Below are positions 24,621-38,903 of a stretch of DNA of 64,000 nucleotides, piece after piece. A program made the translations under genes and the position numbers. Source of the stretch: a virus. Lineage: Duplodnaviria; Heunggongvirae; Uroviricota; Caudoviricetes. Under the pieces are notes generated by a model, which had not been told where the DNA came from, made no database searches, and saw only the letters and a program-made list of their open reading frames with translations. Location of the stretch: the IMG/VR virus record IMGVR_UViG_3300001199_000001, positions 133,404-197,403 of that record; one strand, given 5' to 3'. The stretch's first letter is position 1. Each line of letters starts with the position of its first letter.

Positions 24621-24726
24621 ATGGCCGGATATGTCCGGATAATGTCCGGCTAATTCAAAAAACTTAATAAATTCAATAGAGACATGCCGTGAAGGATGTC
24701 CAGCAAATGTCCGGATATGGCCGGAT
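24621..24726. repeat. Six ATG(G/T)CCGGAT-type direct repeats in two triads around an AT-rich core
   Basis: Copies at 24621, 24631, 24642, 24696, 24707 and 24717; AT-rich stretch at 24651-24680. Confidence 0.8.
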
Positions 24727-24734
24727 ACTCGAAG

Positions 24735-24768
24735 AAAAACCCGCCAGACCGAAGTCGGGCGGGTTTTC
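24735..24768 (-). terminator. Terminator ending the minus-strand RNA transcript
   Basis: AAAAACCCGCC-AGAC-CGAA-GTC-GGGCGGGTTTT. Confidence 0.75.
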
Positions 24769-24773
24769 TCGCA

Positions 24774-24883
24774 TGGAGCGAGAGGTTGGATTCACACCAA
24801 CGTCCTCGTAAGCGAAACATTACCGCAAATGAATGCGGAAGAGGCGTCGCCGCCAGAGTGCCCTTAACCTAGACCACTCTCGC
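24774..24883 (-). ncRNA. tRNA-like RNA with ~55-nt expanded anticodon arm
   Basis: Acceptor GCGAGAG/CTCTCGC plus T-CCA; D arm GTCT-AGGTTAA-GGGC; T arm GTTGG-TGTGAAT-CCAAC. Confidence 0.75.
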
Positions 24884-24884
24884 A

Positions 24885-25740
24885 GAATGCTTGCTTGACA
24901 GGCTGAGACTACACCTATCGACAACCGTACTTCCGAAGCTTATACTGCCGGTGCGACCCTACAGCTTACCTCGACATCCACCCGGTGGGCTTTAACCCCT
25001 CACCAAGTCTACGGTCAACGCCGCGATTTATAAAGCGCTTGCATCGGCGCTGTCGTCACAGACTACTCGGCATATCACTTCCCGCCTACTTGACGCAGTT
25101 CGAGGGAGCTACCCTCTACGAGTTGTTCCTTACCGACACCGTCAGGTTTGCGACCCTTCGATGACTGGATTACCCGAAGGCTCCAGCGTTAGGCGTCTTT
25201 CGTCTATGACCGAACTCGGACTTTGCTTTTAGCGTATCGGGTTTCGAACCCGAGACAACCACCTGTCAAGGGTGATGCTCTACCAACTGAGCTATGCGCA
25301 AACCCACCATGACGAGCCGAGTTCCGTTGTTCCAATCCCTTTTGGGGACCAGAATGCAACCCGCCACATGCCTTTCACCCCGCTAAGGACTACTCGACTG
25401 TCGTCAAGGACTTCGGTTCCTTACCTTTAGGGCCTTTTTGGACCCATGGGCATATTACCGCCTCCCTCTGGACTACGCCGCGCTCTTGGCCGCTAAGCCT
25501 TAAACTGCGCATCACAGCATTACCTGTGACACTCGGCGTCTCAAGACATTGACCTATGGGCTCTGGATCGTTTGGACAGGAGCTTCAGGGTTCCACCCCC
25601 TCTACGATACGAGCCGCTTATCGCGTCCACCCGCATCCGCCGCTTTCGCGGTCTCCTACGATCTTCGAGCTTGTCTCATACACCTCGCAGCGTATAAGCA
25701 GGAGGTCTCCCTCCTCGGTCTGTCCGGCTTGCTATTTCTC
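24885..25740 (-). ncRNA. Large structured RNA, GOLLD-like
   Basis: ~850 nt with no credible ORF, many GNRA/UUCG-type hairpins, an embedded tRNA, possible 5'/3' end pairing (GACAG/CTGTC), and a phage tRNA-cluster context. The family assignment is from recalled architecture, not from a covariance search. Confidence 0.65.
25230..25301 (-). tRNA. Degenerate tRNA embedded in the large RNA (loop CTTGACA; no CCA)
   Basis: GCTC-AGTTGGTA-GAGC, TCACC-CTTGACA-GGTGG and TCGGG-TTCGAAA-CCCGA; acceptor TTGCGCA/TACGCTA has two mismatches. Confidence 0.75.
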
Positions 25741-25973: not shown

Positions 25974-26150
25974 TGCGTCGAAGTCCTGTCGGTCGGCCGA
26001 TTTGGCGGGGCTTCCTTACGCGGATGATGTAAGCCGGGGTGCGGGGTTGAACCCGTACGGAGGTGGATCGGGCGCCGCGAGAGTCTAACCGTCAGGCGCC
26101 TGCCGGGGACGACCGACAAATAAGCCTACGACCGATATGGGGACGCACCA
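25974..26150 (+). ncRNA. Candidate structured RNA ending in ACCA
   Basis: GCGTC/GACGC+ACCA closing stem; TGTCGGTCG/CGACCGACA 9-bp stem; TTGACG -35 at 25939. Confidence 0.45.
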
Positions 26151-26171
26151 CATTCTTACAGCGAGTACGAC

Positions 26172-26519
26172 ATGAGCCTTTTTCAACTCGGCGACTTCAC
26201 CCTTGCTTCCGGCGTCAAGAGCGCGTGGAAGATAGAATGCGATGCGCTCACCCCAGACGATTGGTCCGCGCTGGCTAAGATGGCTGTAGAACGCCTGCCA
26301 GCATTTGGTGAGGTCGAAGGTGTTCCGCGTGGCGGTATTCCGTTTGCTGATGCACTCCGTATATATGCGACGCAAGGCCCACTGCTTATCGCCGAGGATG
26401 TCGTGACGACCGGCGGTAGTATGGAGCGCTTTCGGGCCGGTCGCGACGCTATCGGCATTGCGGTTTTCGGACGGGGGCAATTCCCGGAATGGATTAATCC
26501 CTTGTTCCGTCTCAGCTAA
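26172..26519 (+). CDS. Minimal type I phosphoribosyltransferase (orotate PRT-like)
   Basis: GDFTLASG, GVPRGG and PRPP loop LIAEDVVTTGGS. Confidence 0.85.
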   Translation: MSLFQLGDFTLASGVKSAWKIECDALTPDDWSALAKMAVERLPAFGEVEGVPRGGIPFADALRIYATQGPLLIAEDVVTTGGSMERFRAGRDAIGIAVFGRGQFPEWINPLFRLS

Positions 26520-26528
26520 TAGTTGTTG

Positions 26529-26557
26529 TTGACATACCGGCAAGAATCGATTATAAA
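26529..26557 (+). promoter_or_regulatory. Sigma70-type promoter of the tmRNA
   Basis: TTGACA-17 nt-TATAAA. Confidence 0.8.
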
Positions 26558-26562
26558 CACGA

Positions 26563-27000
26563 AATCGTCGTAATTCGGTTTACGGCGTTGGCGGCAAGAC
26601 GGGGCTTCGATGCCCCCGCCTCCACCACGAACACCTGATCTGCTAACCTTCGGGGACGCAGACCAGACGAAAGCCATCTGTCTGAAATCTGCGGATCGCC
26701 TCAGGCCTCCGGAGTTGAGAAGATAGCTGGATAGCAGGTGTTCTTGATGGGGGCGATTTGGTTTCGATTGGCGCTGACGGATGTGGGACGCGACGGTGGG
26801 TGACCTCCGCCTTGTGCGGTCGTGAGGATCGGAAATATGGAAGTCCTCGGACGTTCCTGATCTGTCCAAGCGCGGCAAGAATTGGGTCAGTCTTGACAAC
26901 TGTCAACGACAACACCGCTCCGGTTATGGAGACCCTGCTCGCTGCTTAATCGCAGTTAGCACGGGCTCAGGGGACGGCCTTGGAACAGAAGGTCCCCACT
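26563..27000 (+). ncRNA. ssrA: Circularly permuted two-piece tmRNA
   Basis: Acceptor piece with T arm ends CGCCTCCACCA (26627). Coding piece starts GGGGGCG (26749), giving G3-U70. Tag frame 26902-26949 reads VNDNTAPVMETLLAA*. Alphaproteobacterial-type 3' hairpin with AACAGAA. Confidence 0.93.
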
Positions 27001-28366: not shown

Positions 28367-29839
28367 TCATTCAGCGATGCCGCACATCAATGGATTGTCG
28401 ATGTGACCCTCGTAGACGTGGACCGGCTGTCCCCAAAGACGCCGGACATGTTTCATCATCGGCGTTGGATCGGCGATCATACGGTTCTTATGTGGCGTCC
28501 ACCTGATCCACAGGCGCCGTTGGTCGTCCACCCGGAACACCTCCAGCTTCGGCACGTAGGCTTCGCGTTCGTGGCTATCGGCCAAGGTCTCGCGGATGTT
28601 GTGATAGCCCTGCTCGTTTTGGATCGCCTTGACCTGATATTTGTCGTCTTCCCGGTCATCGAACACGTGGAAGAAACCAAAGTCGCGTATGACCTTTGGC
28701 GATAGGAACTGCCGGATCATACTTTCGTCGCGGTAATTGGCCACGATATCCTTGATCACCTCACGCCCGTTGACGCCGGTAAGATCAGGGAACCACTGTT
28801 TATCCTCATCGGTCGGATTTGCGCAGATGCGCTCGACATCCCGAAGAATCTCGAAGCCAAGCTTGTACGGGTTGATGCCGCTGTATCGCTTGTCGTTCCA
28901 GCGGGGCTGGAAGAGAACGTTGGCGTGCAGCATCAACCACTCTAGTTGAGAGCCGTCGGTGATCAGGCCCTTCTCATGAAGACGGTTCATGATCGTGTAG
29001 TGAGTCCACGAGGCAAAGCCCTCGTTGGCGACCTTGGTCTGGCCTTGCGGATAAAAATACTGGGCGACCTTCCGGACGATACGAATTAACTCACGCTGCC
29101 ACGGCTTTAGCGACGGCGAGTGTTTCTCACAGAAATAGAGGATGTTTTCCTCCGGGCTCTCCGGGAAGAATTTATCGTCTTCCGGGGTCTCCTCCTCATC
29201 GGGCAAAATTCGGTAAAGCTCGTCGACCCGCGATTGCAGGTACCTCTCGCGTTCCTTCTGACGCTCGCGCTCTTTAGCCAGGGAAATCTTCGATGGACGC
29301 TTATAGCGATTGATGCCGTAGTTCATCAGCGCATGGCAGGAGTCTAGGAACTGCTCGACCTCGTCGTGTCCGTGCTTGAACTCGCAGTCGGCGACATAAT
29401 CCTTAGCGAAGATCATATAGTCGACGATACTCTCAGCGTCGGTCCAAGTTTTGAATAGGTAGTTGCATTTGAAGAACGAATTATGCCCGACCCCAGCGTG
29501 CGCCATGACCAGCCCTTGGGTGGTCATCGTGTTTTCTTCCATGAGATAGTTCACACACGGAGAAGAATTGATGACCAATTCATAGGCGAGTCCACTCGCC
29601 CCTGACTTGTATGATTGATGCTGCGCGGCGAAGCTCTTACCGAAGCTCCAGTGATTATAATAGATGGGCAGGCCGATGCTCGAATAAGCATCCAGCATCT
29701 GGTCGCTGGTGATAATTTCGAACTGGTTTCGATAAATGTCGAAACCAAGCTCTTCGTCGTTGATGGTTTGAATGGCGGCCCAAGTCCGATTGATCCGGTC
29801 GAAGGTCCACTCACTGTCCGTCCACAGGGGCTCGGTCAT
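28367..29839 (-). CDS. ycgB: SpoVR/YcgB family protein
   Basis: YNHWSFGK, GLAYELVINS, AHAGVGHNSFFK and QTKVANEGFASWTHY. Confidence 0.95.
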   Translation of the reverse strand: MTEPLWTDSEWTFDRINRTWAAIQTINDEELGFDIYRNQFEIITSDQMLDAYSSIGLPIYYNHWSFGKSFAAQHQSYKSGASGLAYELVINSSPCVNYLMEENTMTTQGLVMAHAGVGHNSFFKCNYLFKTWTDAESIVDYMIFAKDYVADCEFKHGHDEVEQFLDSCHALMNYGINRYKRPSKISLAKERERQKERERYLQSRVDELYRILPDEEETPEDDKFFPESPEENILYFCEKHSPSLKPWQRELIRIVRKVAQYFYPQGQTKVANEGFASWTHYTIMNRLHEKGLITDGSQLEWLMLHANVLFQPRWNDKRYSGINPYKLGFEILRDVERICANPTDEDKQWFPDLTGVNGREVIKDIVANYRDESMIRQFLSPKVIRDFGFFHVFDDREDDKYQVKAIQNEQGYHNIRETLADSHEREAYVPKLEVFRVDDQRRLWIRWTPHKNRMIADPTPMMKHVRRLWGQPVHVYEGHIDNPLMCGIAE

Positions 29840-31158
29840 TCCCTATCCTTACTGAAAAGCTTACGGAAGACGCTGATGACCTCTTTGTCGTCATCGATCT
29901 GCGCCATATCCATGTTCCGGTGTTTGAGGTTGGCGATCTTGAGCACCTTCCACAGACCCTCATCGTACATCAGCGATCCCCAGAAGGAGTGCTTCTTGTA
30001 GGGGTGCGGGACCTCGATATAGTTGAAGTGCTGGCACATCGGCAGGAGCCTATCGAGCGCGCTAAGCACGACCGGGTTATCACTGTCGGAGTTATCACCG
30101 TCACTGACCTGCGCGAGATAAATATTCCAATCATCGACCGGGTAACGCGCTGAGATCACGCTTTGGACGACTTCGTAGGCCGTAGAGACGACCGTCCCGC
30201 CGCTCTCCCGTGAGTTAAAGAAGGCATCCTCATCGCATTCGATGGCCGTGTCGTGGTGCCGAACGAAAACCACGTCGATGTTGCGATACTGACGGCGGAG
30301 GAAAAGACTGAGCAGTAGGAAAAATTTCTTGGCGATGGTTTTCTCGCGGTTACCCATCGAACCCGATACGTCCATCACGCAGATCATCACTGCCTGGACG
30401 GAGGGGCGGGGGTGTTTGACGAAATTGTTGAACCGCAGATCGACATCGTCGAGGAAGGTGACGGCGTTCGCGCGCCGCCGCAAAACTGAAATCTGCTCTT
30501 CGATTTCAGGGATCGACGCCCTTATGCTGTCGTGAGTTTCCGGGTGCAGTCCCAGATCAAGGATTTCCTGATATTGGGCTAGCTGCTCTTCCAATTCCTT
30601 GATCTTGGCCATCTTCGGCGACCGCAAGGCGATCCTTCGGCCGAGGCCCGCGATAGCCGTGCGTTCAACGTTGAGATTGGCGGGGATGCCGACACTGGTG
30701 TGTCCGGCGCGAACGGTGTCGTATTTGACCACATTTTTCTCTGACTGCTTGACCATGTCCGGCAGTTCGAGGTCTTCAAAAATGATGTTCAGATACTCGT
30801 CGTAGGACAAGGCAAAGTCGAAGTCGTCTTCATCTGGACCGTCTGAGGAACCGCCGCGTCCCATGCCGTTAGGGTCGCTCTCAGGCTTATAGATGCTGTC
30901 GCCCGGCACGTAGTCCTTGTTGCCCGGCAGGACATAATCGTATTCACCGAACTCGCGGTCGTGATGAAATTGCGGCTCGTCGATCCCGTCATGCGGAATG
31001 GAGATATCCGCATCGGTCGTGTCGTTGATGGACCGCCCGGCGATCTTACGCCGGGCGGCATCCTGAATAGACTTCTTAGCCCGGCCGACAAACCGCTGAC
31101 GGTTGTTAAGCGACTTTCCTTGCGGGTTTTTGCGTCGGTCGATGATGATACTGGACAA
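29836..31158 (-). CDS. yeaH: YeaH/YhbH (DUF444) vWA protein
   Basis: IIDRRKNPQGKS, PGNKDY, MDVSGSM, RESGGTVVS and SDGDN. Confidence 0.95.
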   Translation of the reverse strand: MSSIIIDRRKNPQGKSLNNRQRFVGRAKKSIQDAARRKIAGRSINDTTDADISIPHDGIDEPQFHHDREFGEYDYVLPGNKDYVPGDSIYKPESDPNGMGRGGSSDGPDEDDFDFALSYDEYLNIIFEDLELPDMVKQSEKNVVKYDTVRAGHTSVGIPANLNVERTAIAGLGRRIALRSPKMAKIKELEEQLAQYQEILDLGLHPETHDSIRASIPEIEEQISVLRRRANAVTFLDDVDLRFNNFVKHPRPSVQAVMICVMDVSGSMGNREKTIAKKFFLLLSLFLRRQYRNIDVVFVRHHDTAIECDEDAFFNSRESGGTVVSTAYEVVQSVISARYPVDDWNIYLAQVSDGDNSDSDNPVVLSALDRLLPMCQHFNYIEVPHPYKKHSFWGSLMYDEGLWKVLKIANLKHRNMDMAQIDDDKEVISVFRKLFSKDRE

Positions 31159-31350
31159 CGCGTTATCCCTTTAAGATAGGCGGTTGATTATGCTGCTCAT
31201 AGTTCGAAGGGTATCTTGTGCTCGATCTTGAGCGGCAGGTTCTTCACGTCGGAGCATTCGATGAGGGCGCAGTCGCCGGGCATAACCTCAGCGAGAACGC
31301 GGCGACTGCGAGTCCACACCACCACCATCTCATCGCCTAAGTTCTCAAGC

Positions 31351-31782
31351 TTAAGCAGCAACCGCCACCTGTCTTTCGATCTCAGCCACTAGCTGCGGCT
31401 CCGGCGGCTGCCATGACGGCGGCTTCATGACCTTGCCATCTTCTTTGAAGCGCGGCTTGCCGTCTTCCCAAAGCTTGGCCATGTTAGCGCCTTGGACGAT
31501 ATCCCAGAGATTCCCAGGCTGTACGCCCATGACCACCAGACCGCCCATTGCGAAGTAGAGGATGTCCAAGAAGGCGTCGGCTTGGTCGACGATAGTTGTC
31601 GCCTCGCCGAGTTCACGGACCTCTTCCTTGATCCATTCCGACCGCCGCGTGACCTCGAATTCATTCATCAAGGTCGGCCCGTCGGGAGCCGGATGGTTAA
31701 ACGCGAGGTGGAAGTCGCGGACTTCGTGCCACTGTTTATTCACGCAGTCCGCCTTTCGGATTTCCGCTGCTCGTTTTTCCAC
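31351..31782 (-). CDS. MazG-like / PRA-PH family NTP pyrophosphohydrolase
   Basis: VRDFHLAF, EEVREL, DAFLDILY, VQGANMAK and DGKVMKP. Confidence 0.88.
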   Translation of the reverse strand: MEKRAAEIRKADCVNKQWHEVRDFHLAFNHPAPDGPTLMNEFEVTRRSEWIKEEVRELGEATTIVDQADAFLDILYFAMGGLVVMGVQPGNLWDIVQGANMAKLWEDGKPRFKEDGKVMKPPSWQPPEPQLVAEIERQVAVAA

Positions 31783-32192
31783 TCTTCGAATGTATTGTAT
31801 TGCACACCGTAAGCTGCATTAACTACAACCCCGTTCGAATGCCTGACATCAAAGCTGTTAGAGTCAGCGGCATCATTAATCCCATTTGCTGTAATGGGCA
31901 TTAAAGTTCCAGACACATTAACGGCCCACCCAATAACCGGTATTGAATGAATGTAGTAACCTTCAGATAAATTTTCGTCAGGCCAGTATGATATTAAGTC
32001 AGTATCGGGCGAAGCGGCGAACGTCGAAACTATAGGACTAATGAAATCGTTCAATTCATATGAACTGACCTCTATGCTTCGTTCGCCCTTAAGATATACA
32101 TAATGCCTGTCATTATCTAGTTTCTTGGATATCTCTGTTACCCTACTGATTGGGTAATAGGCTCCATGAATATCTTTAAGAAATGCTGTCAT
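31740..32192 (-). CDS. Hypothetical protein, AT-rich
   Basis: 150-aa ORF, visibly lower GC than its flanks. Confidence 0.7.
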   Translation of the reverse strand: MTAFLKDIHGAYYPISRVTEISKKLDNDRHYVYLKGERSIEVSSYELNDFISPIVSTFAASPDTDLISYWPDENLSEGYYIHSIPVIGWAVNVSGTLMPITANGINDAADSNSFDVRHSNGVVVNAAYGVQYNTFEEWKNEQRKSERRTA

Positions 32193-32193
32193 T

Positions 32194-34134
32194 TTATCCG
32201 GCCTTCCGAGTGCGTTGATACCATTCCACCACGCGCCGGACCTGACGGGGGGTGTAGCCCTTGGCGCACATCCGCTCGACGAAGTCCTTGTGCTTCTGTT
32301 CGGTCTCGCGGTCCTGCTTGGCGCCGAACGAGATCACCGGCAGAAGCTCTTCAACGGACGAGAACATCTTCTTCTCGATGACGCGCTTCAGTTTCTCGTA
32401 GGCGGTCCACTTGACGATATCGCCTTCACGGGCCTTCTTCCGCAGAACGAAGTTCACGACCTCATGGCGGAAGTCCTTTGGGTTGGCGATACCCGCTGCC
32501 TTTTCGATCTTCTCAAGCTCGTTATTGAGGAGTTCGCGGTTGAACAGGTTGCCGGTGTCAGGGTCCTTGAAGTCGATCTCTTGCATCCAGTGATCGGCGT
32601 ACTCAAGATAGCGGTCGAACAGGTTCTGGCCGAACTCATCGTACGCCTCAAGGTAGGCCGTCTGAATTTCGTTACCGATGAAGTCGCGGTACTCCGGAAC
32701 GAGGCGTTCCTTGATGTAATTCAGGTACTTAAGTTCGATCTCTTTCGGGAACTGCTCGCGGCGGATAGCGTCTTCGAGCACTAACATGATGTGAACCGGG
32801 TCCGTGGAGACCTCATCGCTATCGTAGTTGTATGCCTTCGAGAGGATTTTGAAGGCGAAGCGCGTCGAGATGCCCGACATACCTTCATCCATCCCGGCGT
32901 CGTCGCGATATTCCTGGACCGATTTGGCGCGGGGATCGGTTTCCTTGATGTTCTCGCCGTCGTAGACGCGCATCTTGGACCACTCATTCGAGTTCGGGTG
33001 ATCCTTGAGGCGGGAGAGAACGCTGAAGCGAGACAGCAGTCGAAGGGTCTCAGGCGCGATAGGAGCCTTCGCAAGGTCCGACGATTGCAGCATCTTTTCG
33101 TAGATGGATTGCTCTTCAGTGACCCGCAGGCAGTACGGAACCTTGACCACGCAGATGCGGTCGATGAAGGCTTCGTTGTTCTTGTTATTCTTGAACGTCT
33201 GCCATTCGGCTTCGTTCGAGTGCGCCAAGATCATGCCATTGAACGGGATAGCCGAGATCGCTTCGGTGCCGACGTAGTTGCCTTCTTGCGTGGCGGTCAG
33301 CAGCGGGTGGAGCACCTTGATCGGCGCCTTGAACATCTCGACAAATTCCATCAGGCCTTGGTTGGCCCGGCAGAGCGCGCCGGAGAAGGCGTAGGCGTCA
33401 GGATCGCTTTGCGAGAAGTGCTCCAGCTTGCGGATGTCGGTCTTGCCGACGAGGCAGGAGATATCTTGGTTATTCTCGTCGCCCGGCTCGGTCTTGGCGA
33501 TGCTGATTTGTTCGAGACGCGAGGGCCAGACCTTGGCGACGCGGAACTTGCGGATGTCGCCGCCGAAGCCCTTGAGGCGCTTGACCGCCCATGGCGACAG
33601 GATCGATGAGAGGTAACGACGCTCGATGCCGTAGCGCTCGCTTAGTTCGGTAGCGAATTTATCGGCAGGGAAGAGGCCGAGCGGGCTTTCGAACACCGGG
33701 CTCATCTCTTCGCCCGCGCATAGGACGTAGATGGGATAGGACTCCATCAATTCCTTCAGGCGTTCAGCGATGGAGGATTTACCGCCGCCAACCGGGCCGA
33801 GCAGATAGAGAATCTGCTTACGCTCTTCGAGGCCCTGCGCCGATTGACGGAAGTAGGCGACGATACGCTCGACGGTATCTTCCATGCCGTAAAAATTGGC
33901 GAAGGTCGGATAGATGCGGAGCGTCTTGTTCAGGTAGATACGCGACAGGCGCGGATCGGTCGAAGTATCGAGCTTAACCGGCTCGCCAATTGCCTTGACC
34001 ATCCGCTCCGGAGCGGAAGCATAAGCCATCGGATCAACTTTGCAGAGGTCTAGGTAATCTCCCAGGTCCATGTATTCGACTTGGGACTTTTCGTAGTTGT
34101 CTCGAAAGAGATCAAACAGCGACGGTGCGGGCAT
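32194..34134 (-). CDS. yeaG: PrkA/YeaG AAA+ ATPase / Ser kinase family
   Basis: GPVGGGKS, PGDENNQDIS, ANQGLMEFVEMFK, AHSNE and GISTRF. Confidence 0.96.
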   Translation of the reverse strand: MPAPSLFDLFRDNYEKSQVEYMDLGDYLDLCKVDPMAYASAPERMVKAIGEPVKLDTSTDPRLSRIYLNKTLRIYPTFANFYGMEDTVERIVAYFRQSAQGLEERKQILYLLGPVGGGKSSIAERLKELMESYPIYVLCAGEEMSPVFESPLGLFPADKFATELSERYGIERRYLSSILSPWAVKRLKGFGGDIRKFRVAKVWPSRLEQISIAKTEPGDENNQDISCLVGKTDIRKLEHFSQSDPDAYAFSGALCRANQGLMEFVEMFKAPIKVLHPLLTATQEGNYVGTEAISAIPFNGMILAHSNEAEWQTFKNNKNNEAFIDRICVVKVPYCLRVTEEQSIYEKMLQSSDLAKAPIAPETLRLLSRFSVLSRLKDHPNSNEWSKMRVYDGENIKETDPRAKSVQEYRDDAGMDEGMSGISTRFAFKILSKAYNYDSDEVSTDPVHIMLVLEDAIRREQFPKEIELKYLNYIKERLVPEYRDFIGNEIQTAYLEAYDEFGQNLFDRYLEYADHWMQEIDFKDPDTGNLFNRELLNNELEKIEKAAGIANPKDFRHEVVNFVLRKKAREGDIVKWTAYEKLKRVIEKKMFSSVEELLPVISFGAKQDRETEQKHKDFVERMCAKGYTPRQVRRVVEWYQRTRKAG

Positions 34135-34319
34135 CAGCGGGTTACTCCAAGCTACCCCGCCAGACCACCACCTTTCGTGACCCGTGTCAAGAAAACTGAC
34201 ACGGAATGTTCGTGATAATGACCTGCGACCTTTTTACAGGCCGGTTTCGATGACGAAATGTGTTGACAACTGACGCTTGTTTCCGTATGGTCCGGCCTCA
34301 TTCACAGAGAACAAGGACG

Positions 34320-35540
34320 ATGGTACAGGAACTCGACGGTTTATATGGCGGAAAGATTAAGGCGTGGACCGATGGTGTCGCCTTCGAAGATCGTGCGCGC
34401 GAGCAGGCCTCGAATGTCGCCGCCCTGCCGTTCATCTTCAAGTACGTCGCGATCATGCCGGACGTGCACGCCGGGTACGGCGCGACCGTCGGTTCCGTCA
34501 TCCCGACTAAGGATGTCATCATCCCATATGCGGTTGGCGTCGACATCGGCTGCGGGATGACCGCTGTACGTACGTCGCTGACGGCTTCGGACCTGCCAGA
34601 CAATCTCTTTGATATCCGGACGGCTATTGAGCGTGCCGTTCCGCACGGCGGACCGGGCGTGAAGGGTTCGTGGTCTGAAGCCGGTCGCGGCGGCGTACCG
34701 ACGCGAATCGCCAAGACGTGGAATCAGTCAGGTCTTGCCGACGGGTTCAAGAAGCTCGTCGAAAAGACGCCGACGCTCGAACGGGCGGCGACGGTAACGC
34801 AACTTGGCTCGCTCGGCGGCGGCAACCACTTCATCGAGCTTTGCCTTGATGAGGACAACCGTGTCTGGGTGATGTTACACTCAGGCTCGCGTGGCGTCGG
34901 CAATGTGATCGGGACGCAGTTCGTCGCTGAGGCAAAGGAGCTTCTGCTTCGCCGTGGAGTAGTTCCGCGCGACCGTGACCTTGCCTACCTCCTGAAGGGC
35001 GAGGACGCCTTCGACCGCTACGTCGAGGCCGTCGAGTGGGGACAGAACTTCGCTCGCGTGAATCGCGAGATGATGATGATCCGCGTGCTCGAAGCGCTGC
35101 GCAAGACCGGCTTGCCGTCCTTCCAGACGGATAAGGAAGCGGTCTCGTGCCACCACAACTACGTGGCGCGTGAAACGCACTTTGGCGAAGACATCTTCGT
35201 GACCCGTAAAGGTGCGGTGTCGGCTCAACTCGGCGAATTCGGGATTATTCCGGGTTCAATGGGCGCGCGTTCCTTTATCGTTCGCGGTAAGGGTAACATC
35301 GATTCGTTCTGCTCATGCTCCCACGGTGCTGGACGGGTCATGTCACGTGGCGAAGCCAAGCGGTCTATCTCGCTCGAACAGCACATTGCCGACACGGCGG
35401 GCGTCGAGTGCCGTAAGGATGATTCGGTGCGTGACGAATCGCCGAAGGCCTACAAAAACATCGACGACGTGATGGCGGCTCAGGCCGACCTTGTGGATAT
35501 TGTTCACACCCTGAAGCAAGTCGTTTGCGTGAAGGGTTGA
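34320..35540 (+). CDS. rtcB: RNA 3'-phosphate/5'-OH ligase RtcB
   Basis: MPDVHAG, VGVDIGCG, GGGNHFIE, HSGSRG, HHNY, RKGA, PGSMG and SHGAGR. Confidence 0.97.
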   Translation: MVQELDGLYGGKIKAWTDGVAFEDRAREQASNVAALPFIFKYVAIMPDVHAGYGATVGSVIPTKDVIIPYAVGVDIGCGMTAVRTSLTASDLPDNLFDIRTAIERAVPHGGPGVKGSWSEAGRGGVPTRIAKTWNQSGLADGFKKLVEKTPTLERAATVTQLGSLGGGNHFIELCLDEDNRVWVMLHSGSRGVGNVIGTQFVAEAKELLLRRGVVPRDRDLAYLLKGEDAFDRYVEAVEWGQNFARVNREMMMIRVLEALRKTGLPSFQTDKEAVSCHHNYVARETHFGEDIFVTRKGAVSAQLGEFGIIPGSMGARSFIVRGKGNIDSFCSCSHGAGRVMSRGEAKRSISLEQHIADTAGVECRKDDSVRDESPKAYKNIDDVMAAQADLVDIVHTLKQVVCVKG

Positions 35541-36134: not shown

Positions 36135-36584
36135 ATGAATATCGCTATAACTGGGGAACCCATGCTCTGGACGGACGAACGCGTCGAGACACTTATGGCC
36201 ATGCGCGCCAAAAGGATATCATCCGGCAAGATCGCGCTCGAACTCGGCGTCACCCGTAGCGCCGTAATGGGCAAGCTGAACCGCATACGGGCCGCTGAAA
36301 AAGCTGCCTTGGAGCCGCAGAAGATGCTTGTCAAACCGTTGCCCACGCCGGTCAAGATGGGGCCATCCGCGCCGCGTAGCTTTGGAGCCGTTGAGCCGCG
36401 CGGTGCGGCTACCGTCATGACCCTGAATCATACGACCTGCAAATGGCCCATCGGCGATCCTCAGAGTGATGATTTCACCTTCTGCGGCAAGCGCCCTGAC
36501 AAGGGCGTATACTGCCCTGCTCACGCGAAGATCGCCTACAACCCTCCGCCGCGTCGAACGTCTAGAGCCACGGTAAATGCCTAA
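36135..36584 (+). CDS. gcrA: GcrA cell-cycle regulator homolog
   Basis: WTDERVETL..IALELGVTRSAVMGKLNR; CKWPIGDP..FTFCG..YCPAHAKIAY. Confidence 0.94.
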   Translation: MNIAITGEPMLWTDERVETLMAMRAKRISSGKIALELGVTRSAVMGKLNRIRAAEKAALEPQKMLVKPLPTPVKMGPSAPRSFGAVEPRGAATVMTLNHTTCKWPIGDPQSDDFTFCGKRPDKGVYCPAHAKIAYNPPPRRTSRATVNA

Positions 36585-37791: not shown

Positions 37792-38223
37792 ATGGCCAAG
37801 AAAATCTTGGGCTACATCAAGCTACAGGTGAAGGCTGGGTCGGCGACGCCCTCGCCTCCTATCGGCCCGGCGCTGGGCCAACGCGGCGTTAACATCATGG
37901 GCTTCTGTAAGGAGTTCAACGCCCGCACCGAAAAGGAAGTCAAAGGCACGCCCCTGCCTACCGTCATTACGGTCTATCAGGACAAGTCCTTCACCTTCAT
38001 CACCAAGACGCCGCCCGCGACCCACTATCTGAAGGAAGCCGCCAAGCTACAATCCGGTTCGAAAGAGCCCGGTCGCGTAGTTGCTGGTTCCGTCACCCGA
38101 ACTCAATTGCGCGAGATCGCCGAAAAGAAAATGAAAGACCTCAACGCCCACGACATCGAAGCCGCAGCGCGTATCATTGAAGGCTCGGCTCGTGCGATGG
38201 GCCTCAAAGTGGTGGAGCGTTAA
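37792..38223 (+). CDS. rplK: 50S ribosomal protein uL11
   Basis: [53 protein letters not shown], full length. Confidence 0.98.
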
Positions 38224-38225
38224 TC

Positions 38226-38903
38226 ATGCGCAAGCCATCAAAACGCTTTACCGCGCGGACCGGAGACCGAGCCGTTAATCACCCTCTCGAAGAGGCCATC
38301 CGGCTTGTGAAGGCGAACGCTACGGCTAAGTTCGATGAGACCGTTGAAATTTCCGTCAACCTGGGCGTCGATCCACGCCACGCCGATCAACAGGTGCGTG
38401 GTGTCGTTAGCCTACCGTCCGGTACTGGGCGCACGGTTCGTGTGGCGGTGATCGCCAAGGACGCCAAGGCGCAAGAAGCGGTCGATGCAGGTGCGGATAT
38501 TGTCGGCGCTGAAGACCTCGTCGAGCGTATTCAAGGCGGGTTTCTGGCTTTCGACCGCGTCATCGCGTCGCCGGACATGATGGCGCTCGTCGGTCGGCTC
38601 GGTAAGGTGCTGGGTCCACGTGGTCTGATGCCCAATCCGCGTGTCGGAACCGTCACGCAAAACGTCGGTCAGGCCGTCAAGGACGCTAAAGGCGGGGCGA
38701 TAGAATTTCGCACCGACAAGGCCGGAATCATTCACGCAGGAATTGGTAAGACGAGCTTTACCGACGATGCTCTGAAAGCCAACGCAGTCGCCATGATAGA
38801 CGCGCTGAACAAAGCCAAGCCCACGGGGGCTAAGGGGACCTACATGCAGCGAGTCAGTCTCTCATCAACTATGGGGCCGGGCTTCAAGGTTGATTTAGCG
38901 TAG
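38226..38903 (+). CDS. rplA: 50S ribosomal protein uL1
   Basis: [36 protein letters not shown] and SSTMGPG. Confidence 0.98.

Follow-up and report, generated by a model that had tools for sequence, protein, structure and literature searches.

A non-decoding tRNA look-alike behind a phage GOLLD RNA: a candidate processing module

Introduction

In eukaryotes, the long non-coding RNAs MALAT1 (with its mascRNA) and MEN-beta carry a transfer RNA (tRNA)-shaped module at their 3′ end, where a cut by RNase P matures the 3′ end of the long RNA and frees a small RNA; in the mascRNA type, CCA is added after an RNase Z cut and the anticodon arm is reduced. In bacteriophage T4, RNAC and RNAD have tRNA-like ends. 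These two RNAs (species 1 and 2) are described as small non-decoding RNAs encoded together with the phage tRNAs, their role being not known (PMC3014915; PMC9697503), and the YrlA/bacterial Y RNA family (RF02553) is described as having a tRNA mimic domain with T and D arms (PMC4201824). The phage RNA GOLLD is reported to adjoin tRNA islands and may carry tRNAs in its linker (PMC6582537; bioRxiv 10.1101/2024.12.08.627333), and a cryo-electron microscopy preprint proposes that GOLLD cages may hold or expose the linked tRNAs (bioRxiv 10.1101/2024.12.08.627333). GOLLD RNAs form 14-mer cages, and tRNAs accompany them persistently. Here we analyse a 64,000-nucleotide (nt) stretch of phage DNA (the window; bases 133404–197403 of the 278,859-bp virus record IMGVR_UViG_3300001199_000001, from a groundwater metagenome), in which a 110-nt tRNA look-alike, hereafter the element, stands behind a GOLLD RNA.

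Like the tRNAs found at or in GOLLD (RF02032), the element shares the strand of GOLLD and follows its conserved 3′ hairpin directly; unlike them, it has no anticodon loop but 57 nt in its place, and default tRNA finders are silent on it. The processing that we predict for it follows the same logic as that of MALAT1–mascRNA and MEN-beta, yet in the element the CCA is encoded and the arm is expanded, and the processing is a prediction only. No sequence relation was found to T4 RNAC or RNAD, which belong to a tRNA cluster and do not follow a GOLLD RNA. With YrlA the element shares the character of a non-decoding tRNA mimic with T and D arms, and such RNAs occur in phages; however, in the RF02553 model the arms are permuted (T arm, stem-loop, D arm) and both RNA termini lie on the anticodon side, whereas the element has the arm order of a tRNA and its two ends form an acceptor stem with CCA. 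A search with RF02553 gave no match on the element, and no TROVE domain was found in the phage genome in a search in which control genomes matched. With the tRNA-like domain of transfer-messenger RNA (tmRNA), the element has in common an acceptor stem with CCA, a T arm and a long helix at the place of the anticodon arm, but it carries G3-C70 instead of the alanine identity pair G3-U70 and lacks a coding part, and an Rfam scan returned no tmRNA-family match on it.

An intact tRNA frame without an anticodon loop

The element runs along the minus strand, and its positions are numbered in the 5′ to 3′ direction from 24883 (position 1). Its parts and immediate surroundings, in window coordinates, are as follows.

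24774–24883 (−): tRNA look-alike, whole element, 110 nt (strict frame scan; ARAGORN intron mode gives identical coordinates)
24877–24883 (−): acceptor stem, 5′ strand GCGAGAG; 7/7 Watson–Crick pairs with CUCUCGC at 24784–24778
24860–24874 (−): D arm GUCU-AGGUUAA-GGGC; 4 pairs (2 G-C, 2 G-U), GG in the loop
24804–24858 (−): expanded central region replacing the anticodon arm; two near-equal folds
24823–24838 (−): cap hairpin CCGCA-UUCAUU-UGCGG, 5 bp with a 6-nt loop; pair probability 0.998 in the unconstrained ensemble
24785–24801 (−): T arm GUUGG-UGUGAAU-CCAAC; 5/5 pairs, pair probability 0.98
24774–24784 (−): acceptor 3′ strand CUCUCGC, discriminator U (24777) and encoded CCA (24776–24774); sequence reading
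24735–24763 (−): intrinsic terminator CCCGCCCGAC-UUCG-GUCUGGCGGG with a U5 tail, 9 pairs and 1 mismatch; sequence reading, forms in the context fold
24884–24899 (−): linker from the GOLLD match to the element, 16 nt, ending in U at −1; sequence reading
24900–25367 (−): conserved 3′ domain of GOLLD RNA (RF02032); cmscan 163.6 bits, gathering score 150, model positions 1–416
25229–25301 (−): tRNA inside the GOLLD linker, anticodon UGA, short variable loop; Rfam tRNA model 49 bits, ARAGORN 25228–25302

U8 and G9 stand between the 5′ acceptor strand and the D arm, a single A (position 25) separates the D arm from the middle of the element, and the acceptor end reads G1-C72, C2-G71, G3-C70 and U73. 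From position 25 to the T arm, 57 nt (24858–24802) take the place of an anticodon arm. A first-pass annotation, made from the letters of the window alone, had described a perfect 7-bp acceptor stem with an encoded CCA and D and T arms, about 55 nt in place of the anticodon arm, the cap CCGCA-UUCAUU-UGCGG and a terminator behind the element. All of these are present, with 7/7, 4 and 5/5 pairs in the three stems, the cap at 24838–24823 and the terminator at 24763–24735; the latter begins 10 nt past the CCA and is absent from the list of a simple terminator scan. One detail has to be corrected: the element had been placed 1–2 nt from the GOLLD 3′ end, yet 16 nt (24899–24884) separate it from the Rfam match. 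The element lies outside this covariance-model match, which ends at 24900, the element starting at 24883.

To judge the frame against chance, both strands of the 278,859-bp genome were scanned under a strict definition, i.e., seven Watson–Crick acceptor pairs, any base followed by CCA, a directly adjoining T hairpin (5 bp, 7-nt loop), a D stem of 4 bp at position 10 and a total length of 60–140. The scan returned 10 matches, nine of them in the tRNA cluster (80–90 kb) and the tenth being the element, and 40 Markov-shuffled genomes gave a single match altogether. The tRNA frame of the element is real and far beyond chance. A relaxed scan, in which CCA was not required and lengths up to 600 were allowed, does not discriminate (39 matches versus 13–20 in shuffles). 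A 74-nt frame with CCA at G000 80073–80146 (+), outside the window, also passes the strict scan and is not listed by ARAGORN.

Acceptor, D and T arms, discriminator and CCA follow one another in the element in cloverleaf order. What is missing is the anticodon arm of a tRNA, a stem of 5 bp closing a loop of 7 nt with U33 and a purine at position 37. No stem of at least four pairs closes a 7-nt loop anywhere in the element, and the sole capped 5-bp stem has the 6-nt loop UUCAUU. The element is uncalled by ARAGORN in its default mode, and the Rfam tRNA model RF00005 gives no match on it, even at E values up to 10. Judged from its sequence, the element has no usable anticodon loop and cannot decode, because a 7-nt anticodon loop is lacking; the first-pass annotation had reached the same view. 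Small open reading frames across the element (56 and 58 amino acids) belong to no PHROG family.

When the tRNA frame is imposed, the middle of the element has two near-equal solutions. The first is one long 16-bp arm (−38.0 kcal/mol), and the second (−37.3 kcal/mol) consists of a GGCG-GCGA-CGCC hairpin, the cap arm with its 5 bp and 6-nt loop, and a 6-bp variable-arm hairpin. As modelled, the second fold looks like a long-variable-arm tRNA with one additional hairpin. Folded alone, the central region reaches −19.2 kcal/mol (z −2.2), and 4 of 200 shuffles fold equally well.

The slot after GOLLD in other loci

Comparison loci were defined as the DNA around an exact 15-nt motif of the GOLLD 3′ end, which gave 28 loci in IMG/VR, at least 119 metagenome loci and at least 120 species-genome loci. 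Against a GOLLD profile, 25 of the 147 loci from IMG/VR and metagenomes and 11 of the 120 from species genomes were confirmed. An ARAGORN tRNA starts 6, 17 and 14 nt after the motif in L006, L025 and L448, respectively, and the element starts 17 nt past it. At least one tRNA is found within 400 nt downstream of GOLLD in 7 of 17 distinct flanks, a count that leaves out three duplicate flanks and one 18-nt stub, and in 7 of the 11 flanks of the species-genome set. Since an ordinary tRNA stands 6–17 nt after the motif in three other loci, the element, as placed in the sequence, occupies the slot of the first tRNA after GOLLD. A tRNA beside GOLLD is an already known arrangement; a non-decoding look-alike in that slot appears to be a variant of it, so far a singleton.

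In phiCbK, Karma and Swift, one strand carries, in order, GOLLD, a terminator, about 200 nt of folded-looking sequence, a second terminator, a tRNA-Cys(GCA) and a third terminator. The tRNA-Cys that closes this island is 89 nt long, with a long variable arm, U73, CCA and its own terminator. The folded-looking piece, at L001:2030–2258 in phiCbK, is GC-rich, has its own terminator and fills the space between the GOLLD terminator and the tRNA-Cys.

A second oversized look-alike is present at L164:521–646 (−), 54 nt past a 164.5-bit GOLLD and ahead of a tRNA array. It spans 126 nt and has the frame of a tRNA, in which the D arm and the T loop are canonical and a small hairpin and a long arm make up a central insert of about 75 nt; its acceptor, D and T arms are all present in the unconstrained minimum-free-energy (MFE) structure, and the Rfam tRNA model is silent on it. 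We regard L164 as an independent parallel to the element.

The place behind GOLLD also holds other RNA-like structures. About 17–95 nt past the GOLLD 3′ motif, L022 and L151/L112 have a three-way-junction RNA in common. It is built of an 8–10-bp closing stem and two hairpins, one variable and the other (CUGG-AUUGGUG-CCAG) conserved; judged by eye, a G-C pair of the closing stem has changed to C-G in a compensatory way. CcrColossus, CcrRogue, CcrBL10 and Brevundimonas phage Marchewka gave no GOLLD match.

A processing module and its alternatives

We propose, tentatively and with somewhat less than even confidence, that the element is a tRNA-derived, non-decoding processing module at the end of the GOLLD transcript. 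In this proposal, GOLLD and the element would form one transcript that ends at the terminator 24763–24735. The 12-bp acceptor/T stack, together with the NCCA end and the U at −1, would be what host RNase P recognises; the enzyme would cut between U24884 and G24883, thereby setting the GOLLD 3′ end and freeing a stable 110-nt RNA, whose trailer would then be trimmed back to the CCA by exonucleases. By its position, the module would probably descend from an ordinary tRNA of the kind that closes the GOLLD RNA islands of other phages, with its decoding part replaced or expanded and the parts read by processing enzymes kept. The element would thus retain the features that tRNA-processing enzymes read, whereas those that the ribosome needs would be gone.

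GOLLD and the element lie on one strand, with the sole strong terminator behind the element; a site scan found no promoter-like or terminator-like site on the minus strand of the linker 24884–24899. A single transcription unit for GOLLD and the element is plausible because they share a strand, the 16-nt linker holds neither a promoter-like site nor a strong terminator, and a strong terminator follows the CCA. For bacterial RNase P, an acceptor/T stack of about 12 bp, a 3′ NCCA and a single-stranded leader with U at −1 suffice, and the anticodon arm is dispensable. The predicted determinants are all in the sequence, namely 7+5 stacked pairs, UCCA and U at 24884, and RCCA and the −1 base are described as having a role in RNase P recognition (PMC12710915). 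An RNase P processing tag was suggested in the first-pass annotation, next to a decoy for tRNA-targeting toxins and an intron-containing tRNA, and of these suggestions it is the one that the context supports best: a processing module is favoured because the element is on the GOLLD strand, 16 nt past GOLLD, with a terminator after it, because its acceptor/T stack with NCCA is intact, and because tRNAs stand at the same spot elsewhere. A function for the element is plausible, and the proposal, if true, would be an argument that a GOLLD-adjacent tRNA serves processing at least in part. A single DNA run, possibly the source sample, contains the stretch, and no RNA dataset is listed with it.

Several observations weigh against this proposal. 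The unconstrained MFE structure of the element is a row of three hairpins (−43.7 kcal/mol, z −3.1), and in the unconstrained ensemble the acceptor stem has a pair probability of 0.005, as opposed to 0.99 for a competing 5′ hairpin; the rival pairings join the 5′ acceptor strand with positions 24–32, and positions 76–80 with 101–105. In the context fold, which has no acceptor stem, element positions 63–74 are taken up by the linker and the 3′ strand of the acceptor by a GCGAGA repeat of the trailer, and either of these modelled pairings could mask the RNase P site. A terminator scan flags the cap hairpin with a U-rich stretch as weakly terminator-like. The T loop UGUGAAU retains U54 and A58 but carries G55 and U56, where tRNAs have U55 and C56, which may weaken recognition of the elbow. 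GOLLD is directly followed by a terminator in the phiCbK group, in Bertelyvirus C1 and BL47 and in L013, so a tRNA is not required for a GOLLD 3′ end. Finally, neither blastn, word scans, a covariance model nor synteny found a homologue of the element, and consequently there is no covariation and no sign of selection keeping the element.

The folding results would suit an element that takes no tRNA fold in the cell, being a three-hairpin 3′ tail of the GOLLD transcript whose frame is an evolutionary leftover: the cloverleaf lies 5.7 kcal/mol above the MFE, and the acceptor stem is missing both from the ensemble and from the context fold. However, among the 43 ARAGORN tRNAs of the phage, the median gap is 2.3 kcal/mol and 7/43 show a gap of 5.7 or more, so the energy model does not decide between the cloverleaf and the three hairpins; given, in addition, a frame far beyond chance, we hold this explanation to be distinctly unlikely. 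A more serious, though still doubtful, alternative is an inert relic, i.e., a former GOLLD-end tRNA gene that suffered an insertion and the loss of an anticodon-loop base and is drifting, with any RNase P cutting incidental. In its favour, the element is a singleton with no relative detectable in the searches made, relatives end GOLLD at a terminator without a tRNA, and the 43 ARAGORN tRNAs elsewhere in the phage form a full set, in which tRNA-Gly is represented twice and tRNA-Cys by a normal copy. The T loop of the element, too, is degenerate, deviating from TTCRANN, the loop type of all 22 tRNA-cluster and tRNA-Tyr frames listed in the relaxed scan, and ARAGORN in intron mode reads the element as an 89-nt long-arm tRNA plus 21 bases, 89 nt being the length of the terminal tRNA-Cys of phiCbK. 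Yet 16/16 acceptor, D and T stem pairs and the CCA are intact although the middle and the T loop are much altered, and this counts against a relic because free drift should have struck the stems too; the inserted region is, moreover, more folded than shuffles (z −2.2).

The same intron-mode call underlies the proposal, also made in the first-pass annotation, of an intron-containing tRNA, in which the insert would be excised and the halves joined by the phage RtcB to give an 89-nt long-arm tRNA with anticodon CAU. In its favour, RtcB is encoded 9.4 kb away (window 34260–35540, +), ARAGORN in intron mode reports a tRNA-Met(CAU) of 89 nt with a 21-nt insert after position 29, and L164 is called in a similar way, as Gln(CUG), where the insert has 41 nt and lies 5′ of the loop. 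Other features speak against it: the anticodon stem has 2 Watson–Crick pairs, 2 G-U pairs and 1 mismatch, position 37 is U, the insert is off the canonical 37/38 site, and an Rfam scan matched no intron family on the element (no formal bulge-helix-bulge search was made). Group I introns are far longer than the 21-nt insert. Of three other long-insert calls that ARAGORN gave in this mode for the genome, none passed the relaxed frame scan, and the splicing endonuclease family tRNA_int_endo (PF01974), matched in control genomes, was not found in the phage. The missing endonuclease family argues against archaeal-type enzymatic splicing just as the missing TROVE/Ro60 argues against a Y-RNA role, and we consider an intron-containing tRNA very improbable. 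Somewhat less remote, but unlikely, is a tRNA mimic acting in trans. After its release, the RNA with its CCA end would bind a partner that handles tRNAs, be it a synthetase, the CCA-adding enzyme or RtcB of the phage, a defence nuclease of the host that targets tRNAs, or the GOLLD cage itself, with the expanded arm as the specific part of the mimic. Consistent with a mimic, G1-C72, C2-G71, G3-C70 and U73 are as in the tRNA-Gly of this and related phages, the phage encodes RtcB and a PolyA_pol/CCA-adding-type enzyme, L164 is another oversized tRNA look-alike beside a phage RNA island, and GOLLD cages are proposed to hold or expose linked tRNAs (bioRxiv 10.1101/2024.12.08.627333); on the other side, no partner was identified, no conservation was detected, and the phage has no Ro60/TROVE gene that would suggest a Y-RNA-type role.

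A bolder version of the mimic, doubtful to much the same degree, would make the element a member of a recurrent, undescribed class of tRNA mimics that are oversized and non-decoding, end in CCA and stand beside giant cage-forming phage RNAs. RNase P would release the element from the GOLLD precursor, and it would act in trans via its Gly-type acceptor end and its own 57-nt arm. It could, for example, be charged or bound instead of a tRNA, absorb a defence enzyme with which the host attacks tRNAs, or bring factors that handle tRNAs to the GOLLD cage. If the look-alikes were a conserved class with arm domains of their own, they would be a bacterial or phage counterpart to the mascRNA-type and Y-RNA-type mimics.

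Search for relatives and candidate ancestry

In a blastn search of the phage collection, the GOLLD region of the phage is 71–72% identical to Caulobacter phiCbK-type phages, and no closer relative was returned. Queried in distant mode against phages, the segment 24700–25500 gave matches in 18 Caulobacter phage records, none of them over the element; these records match only query positions 86–375, i.e., the upstream part of GOLLD with its embedded tRNA. The segment 24650–24900 gave short matches only, the best of them on a repeat motif past the terminator.

Exact-word scans of IMG/VR with four words from the element revealed no relative. The D arm 16-mer occurs at 2 loci and the cap 16-mer at 19, all in unrelated contexts. 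An 18-mer of the T arm occurs at 4 loci, and a 15-mer of it at 120 loci with 97 distinct contexts, of which 34 are hairpin-closed and only L098/L248 is tRNA-shaped. At L098:1491–1559 (−), which is intergenic, a T arm identical to that of the element over 18 nt stands in a tRNA-shaped frame, with a CCC-GAAG-GGG mini arm at the anticodon position and an acceptor stem that extends into a 13-bp stem; its MFE structure is a rod (−61.5 kcal/mol, z −9). The match may be luck, as the chance of one such context among the 34 hairpin-closed ones is about one in six.

A covariance model built from the element as a single sequence (R1) was run on 100 + 57 + 16 sources (173) and on five Dolichocephalovirinae genomes; apart from the element itself, its matches were confined to L098 and ordinary tRNAs. 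Synteny was followed through the downstream gene for a 679-amino-acid protein, and none of its 58 loci shows similarity to the GOLLD region or a tRNA in the corresponding place. The open reading frames at 26085–26543 and 26172–26519 gave no relatives either.

The best matches of R1 in related phages are tRNA-Gly(UCC), with 36.9 and 32.1 bits, followed by an unusual 87–90-nt long-arm 'tRNA-Lys(CUU)' with U73, with 35.1 and 28.4 bits. Its sequence suggests that the element descends from some U73 tRNA; candidate ancestors are U73 tRNAs that are either Gly-type or 'Cys/Lys'-type with a long variable arm. Homology to the 89-nt tRNA-Cys of phiCbK in particular was considered and is unsupported, the identity over the frame being no better than to other U73 tRNAs and R1 being silent on it.

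Short variable loops are the norm in Lys and Cys tRNAs. Long-variable-arm U73 tRNAs of 87–91 nt, of Lys (CUU/UUU) or Cys (GCA) type, recur in phiCbK, C1, Colossus and the phage of the window, at G000 82790–82876 (outside the window), L375:1408–1591, L373:1501–1587, L377:1501–1590, L001:2259–2347 and in the flank of L421. An 87-nt tRNA-Cys is also found behind GOLLD in a Pseudaquabacterium contig.

Neighbouring features and further observations

The tRNA embedded in the GOLLD of the window (25229–25301, −) has a mismatched acceptor stem, and its anticodon UGA is read as Ser by ARAGORN; a similar embedded tRNA is also present in L009 and L031. According to Rfam and ARAGORN, a permuted tmRNA (26566–26949) and a tRNA-Met of the phage lie on the strand opposite GOLLD.

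In CcrColossus, the region L380 (107800–110300) contains a TROVE/Ro60-like protein, gp139, followed by three YrlA-like matches below threshold (42.3, 30.5 and 29.9 bits; gathering score 69), which have the permuted arm order of YrlA and one of which overlaps an annotated tRNA-Gln. This is likely a Ro60/Y-RNA module in a Caulobacter phage.

Other genes of the window include a PolyA_pol/CCA-adding-type gene at about 633–998, a PrkA/DUF444/SpoVR trio at 28367–34134 (−), a GcrA cell-cycle regulator at 36135–36584 (+), and ribosomal proteins L11 and L1 side by side at 37792–38903 (+). Between the terminator and the start of the 679-amino-acid gene, five copies of the 10-mer TGTCCGGATA or a one-mismatch variant are clustered at window 24622–24652 and 24708–24727. 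Matches of this type number 10 in the window against 3.6 expected, short blastn matches to the stretch occur in CcrRogue, CcrBL10 and Bertelyvirus genomes, and the cluster may be a regulator-binding or promoter array.

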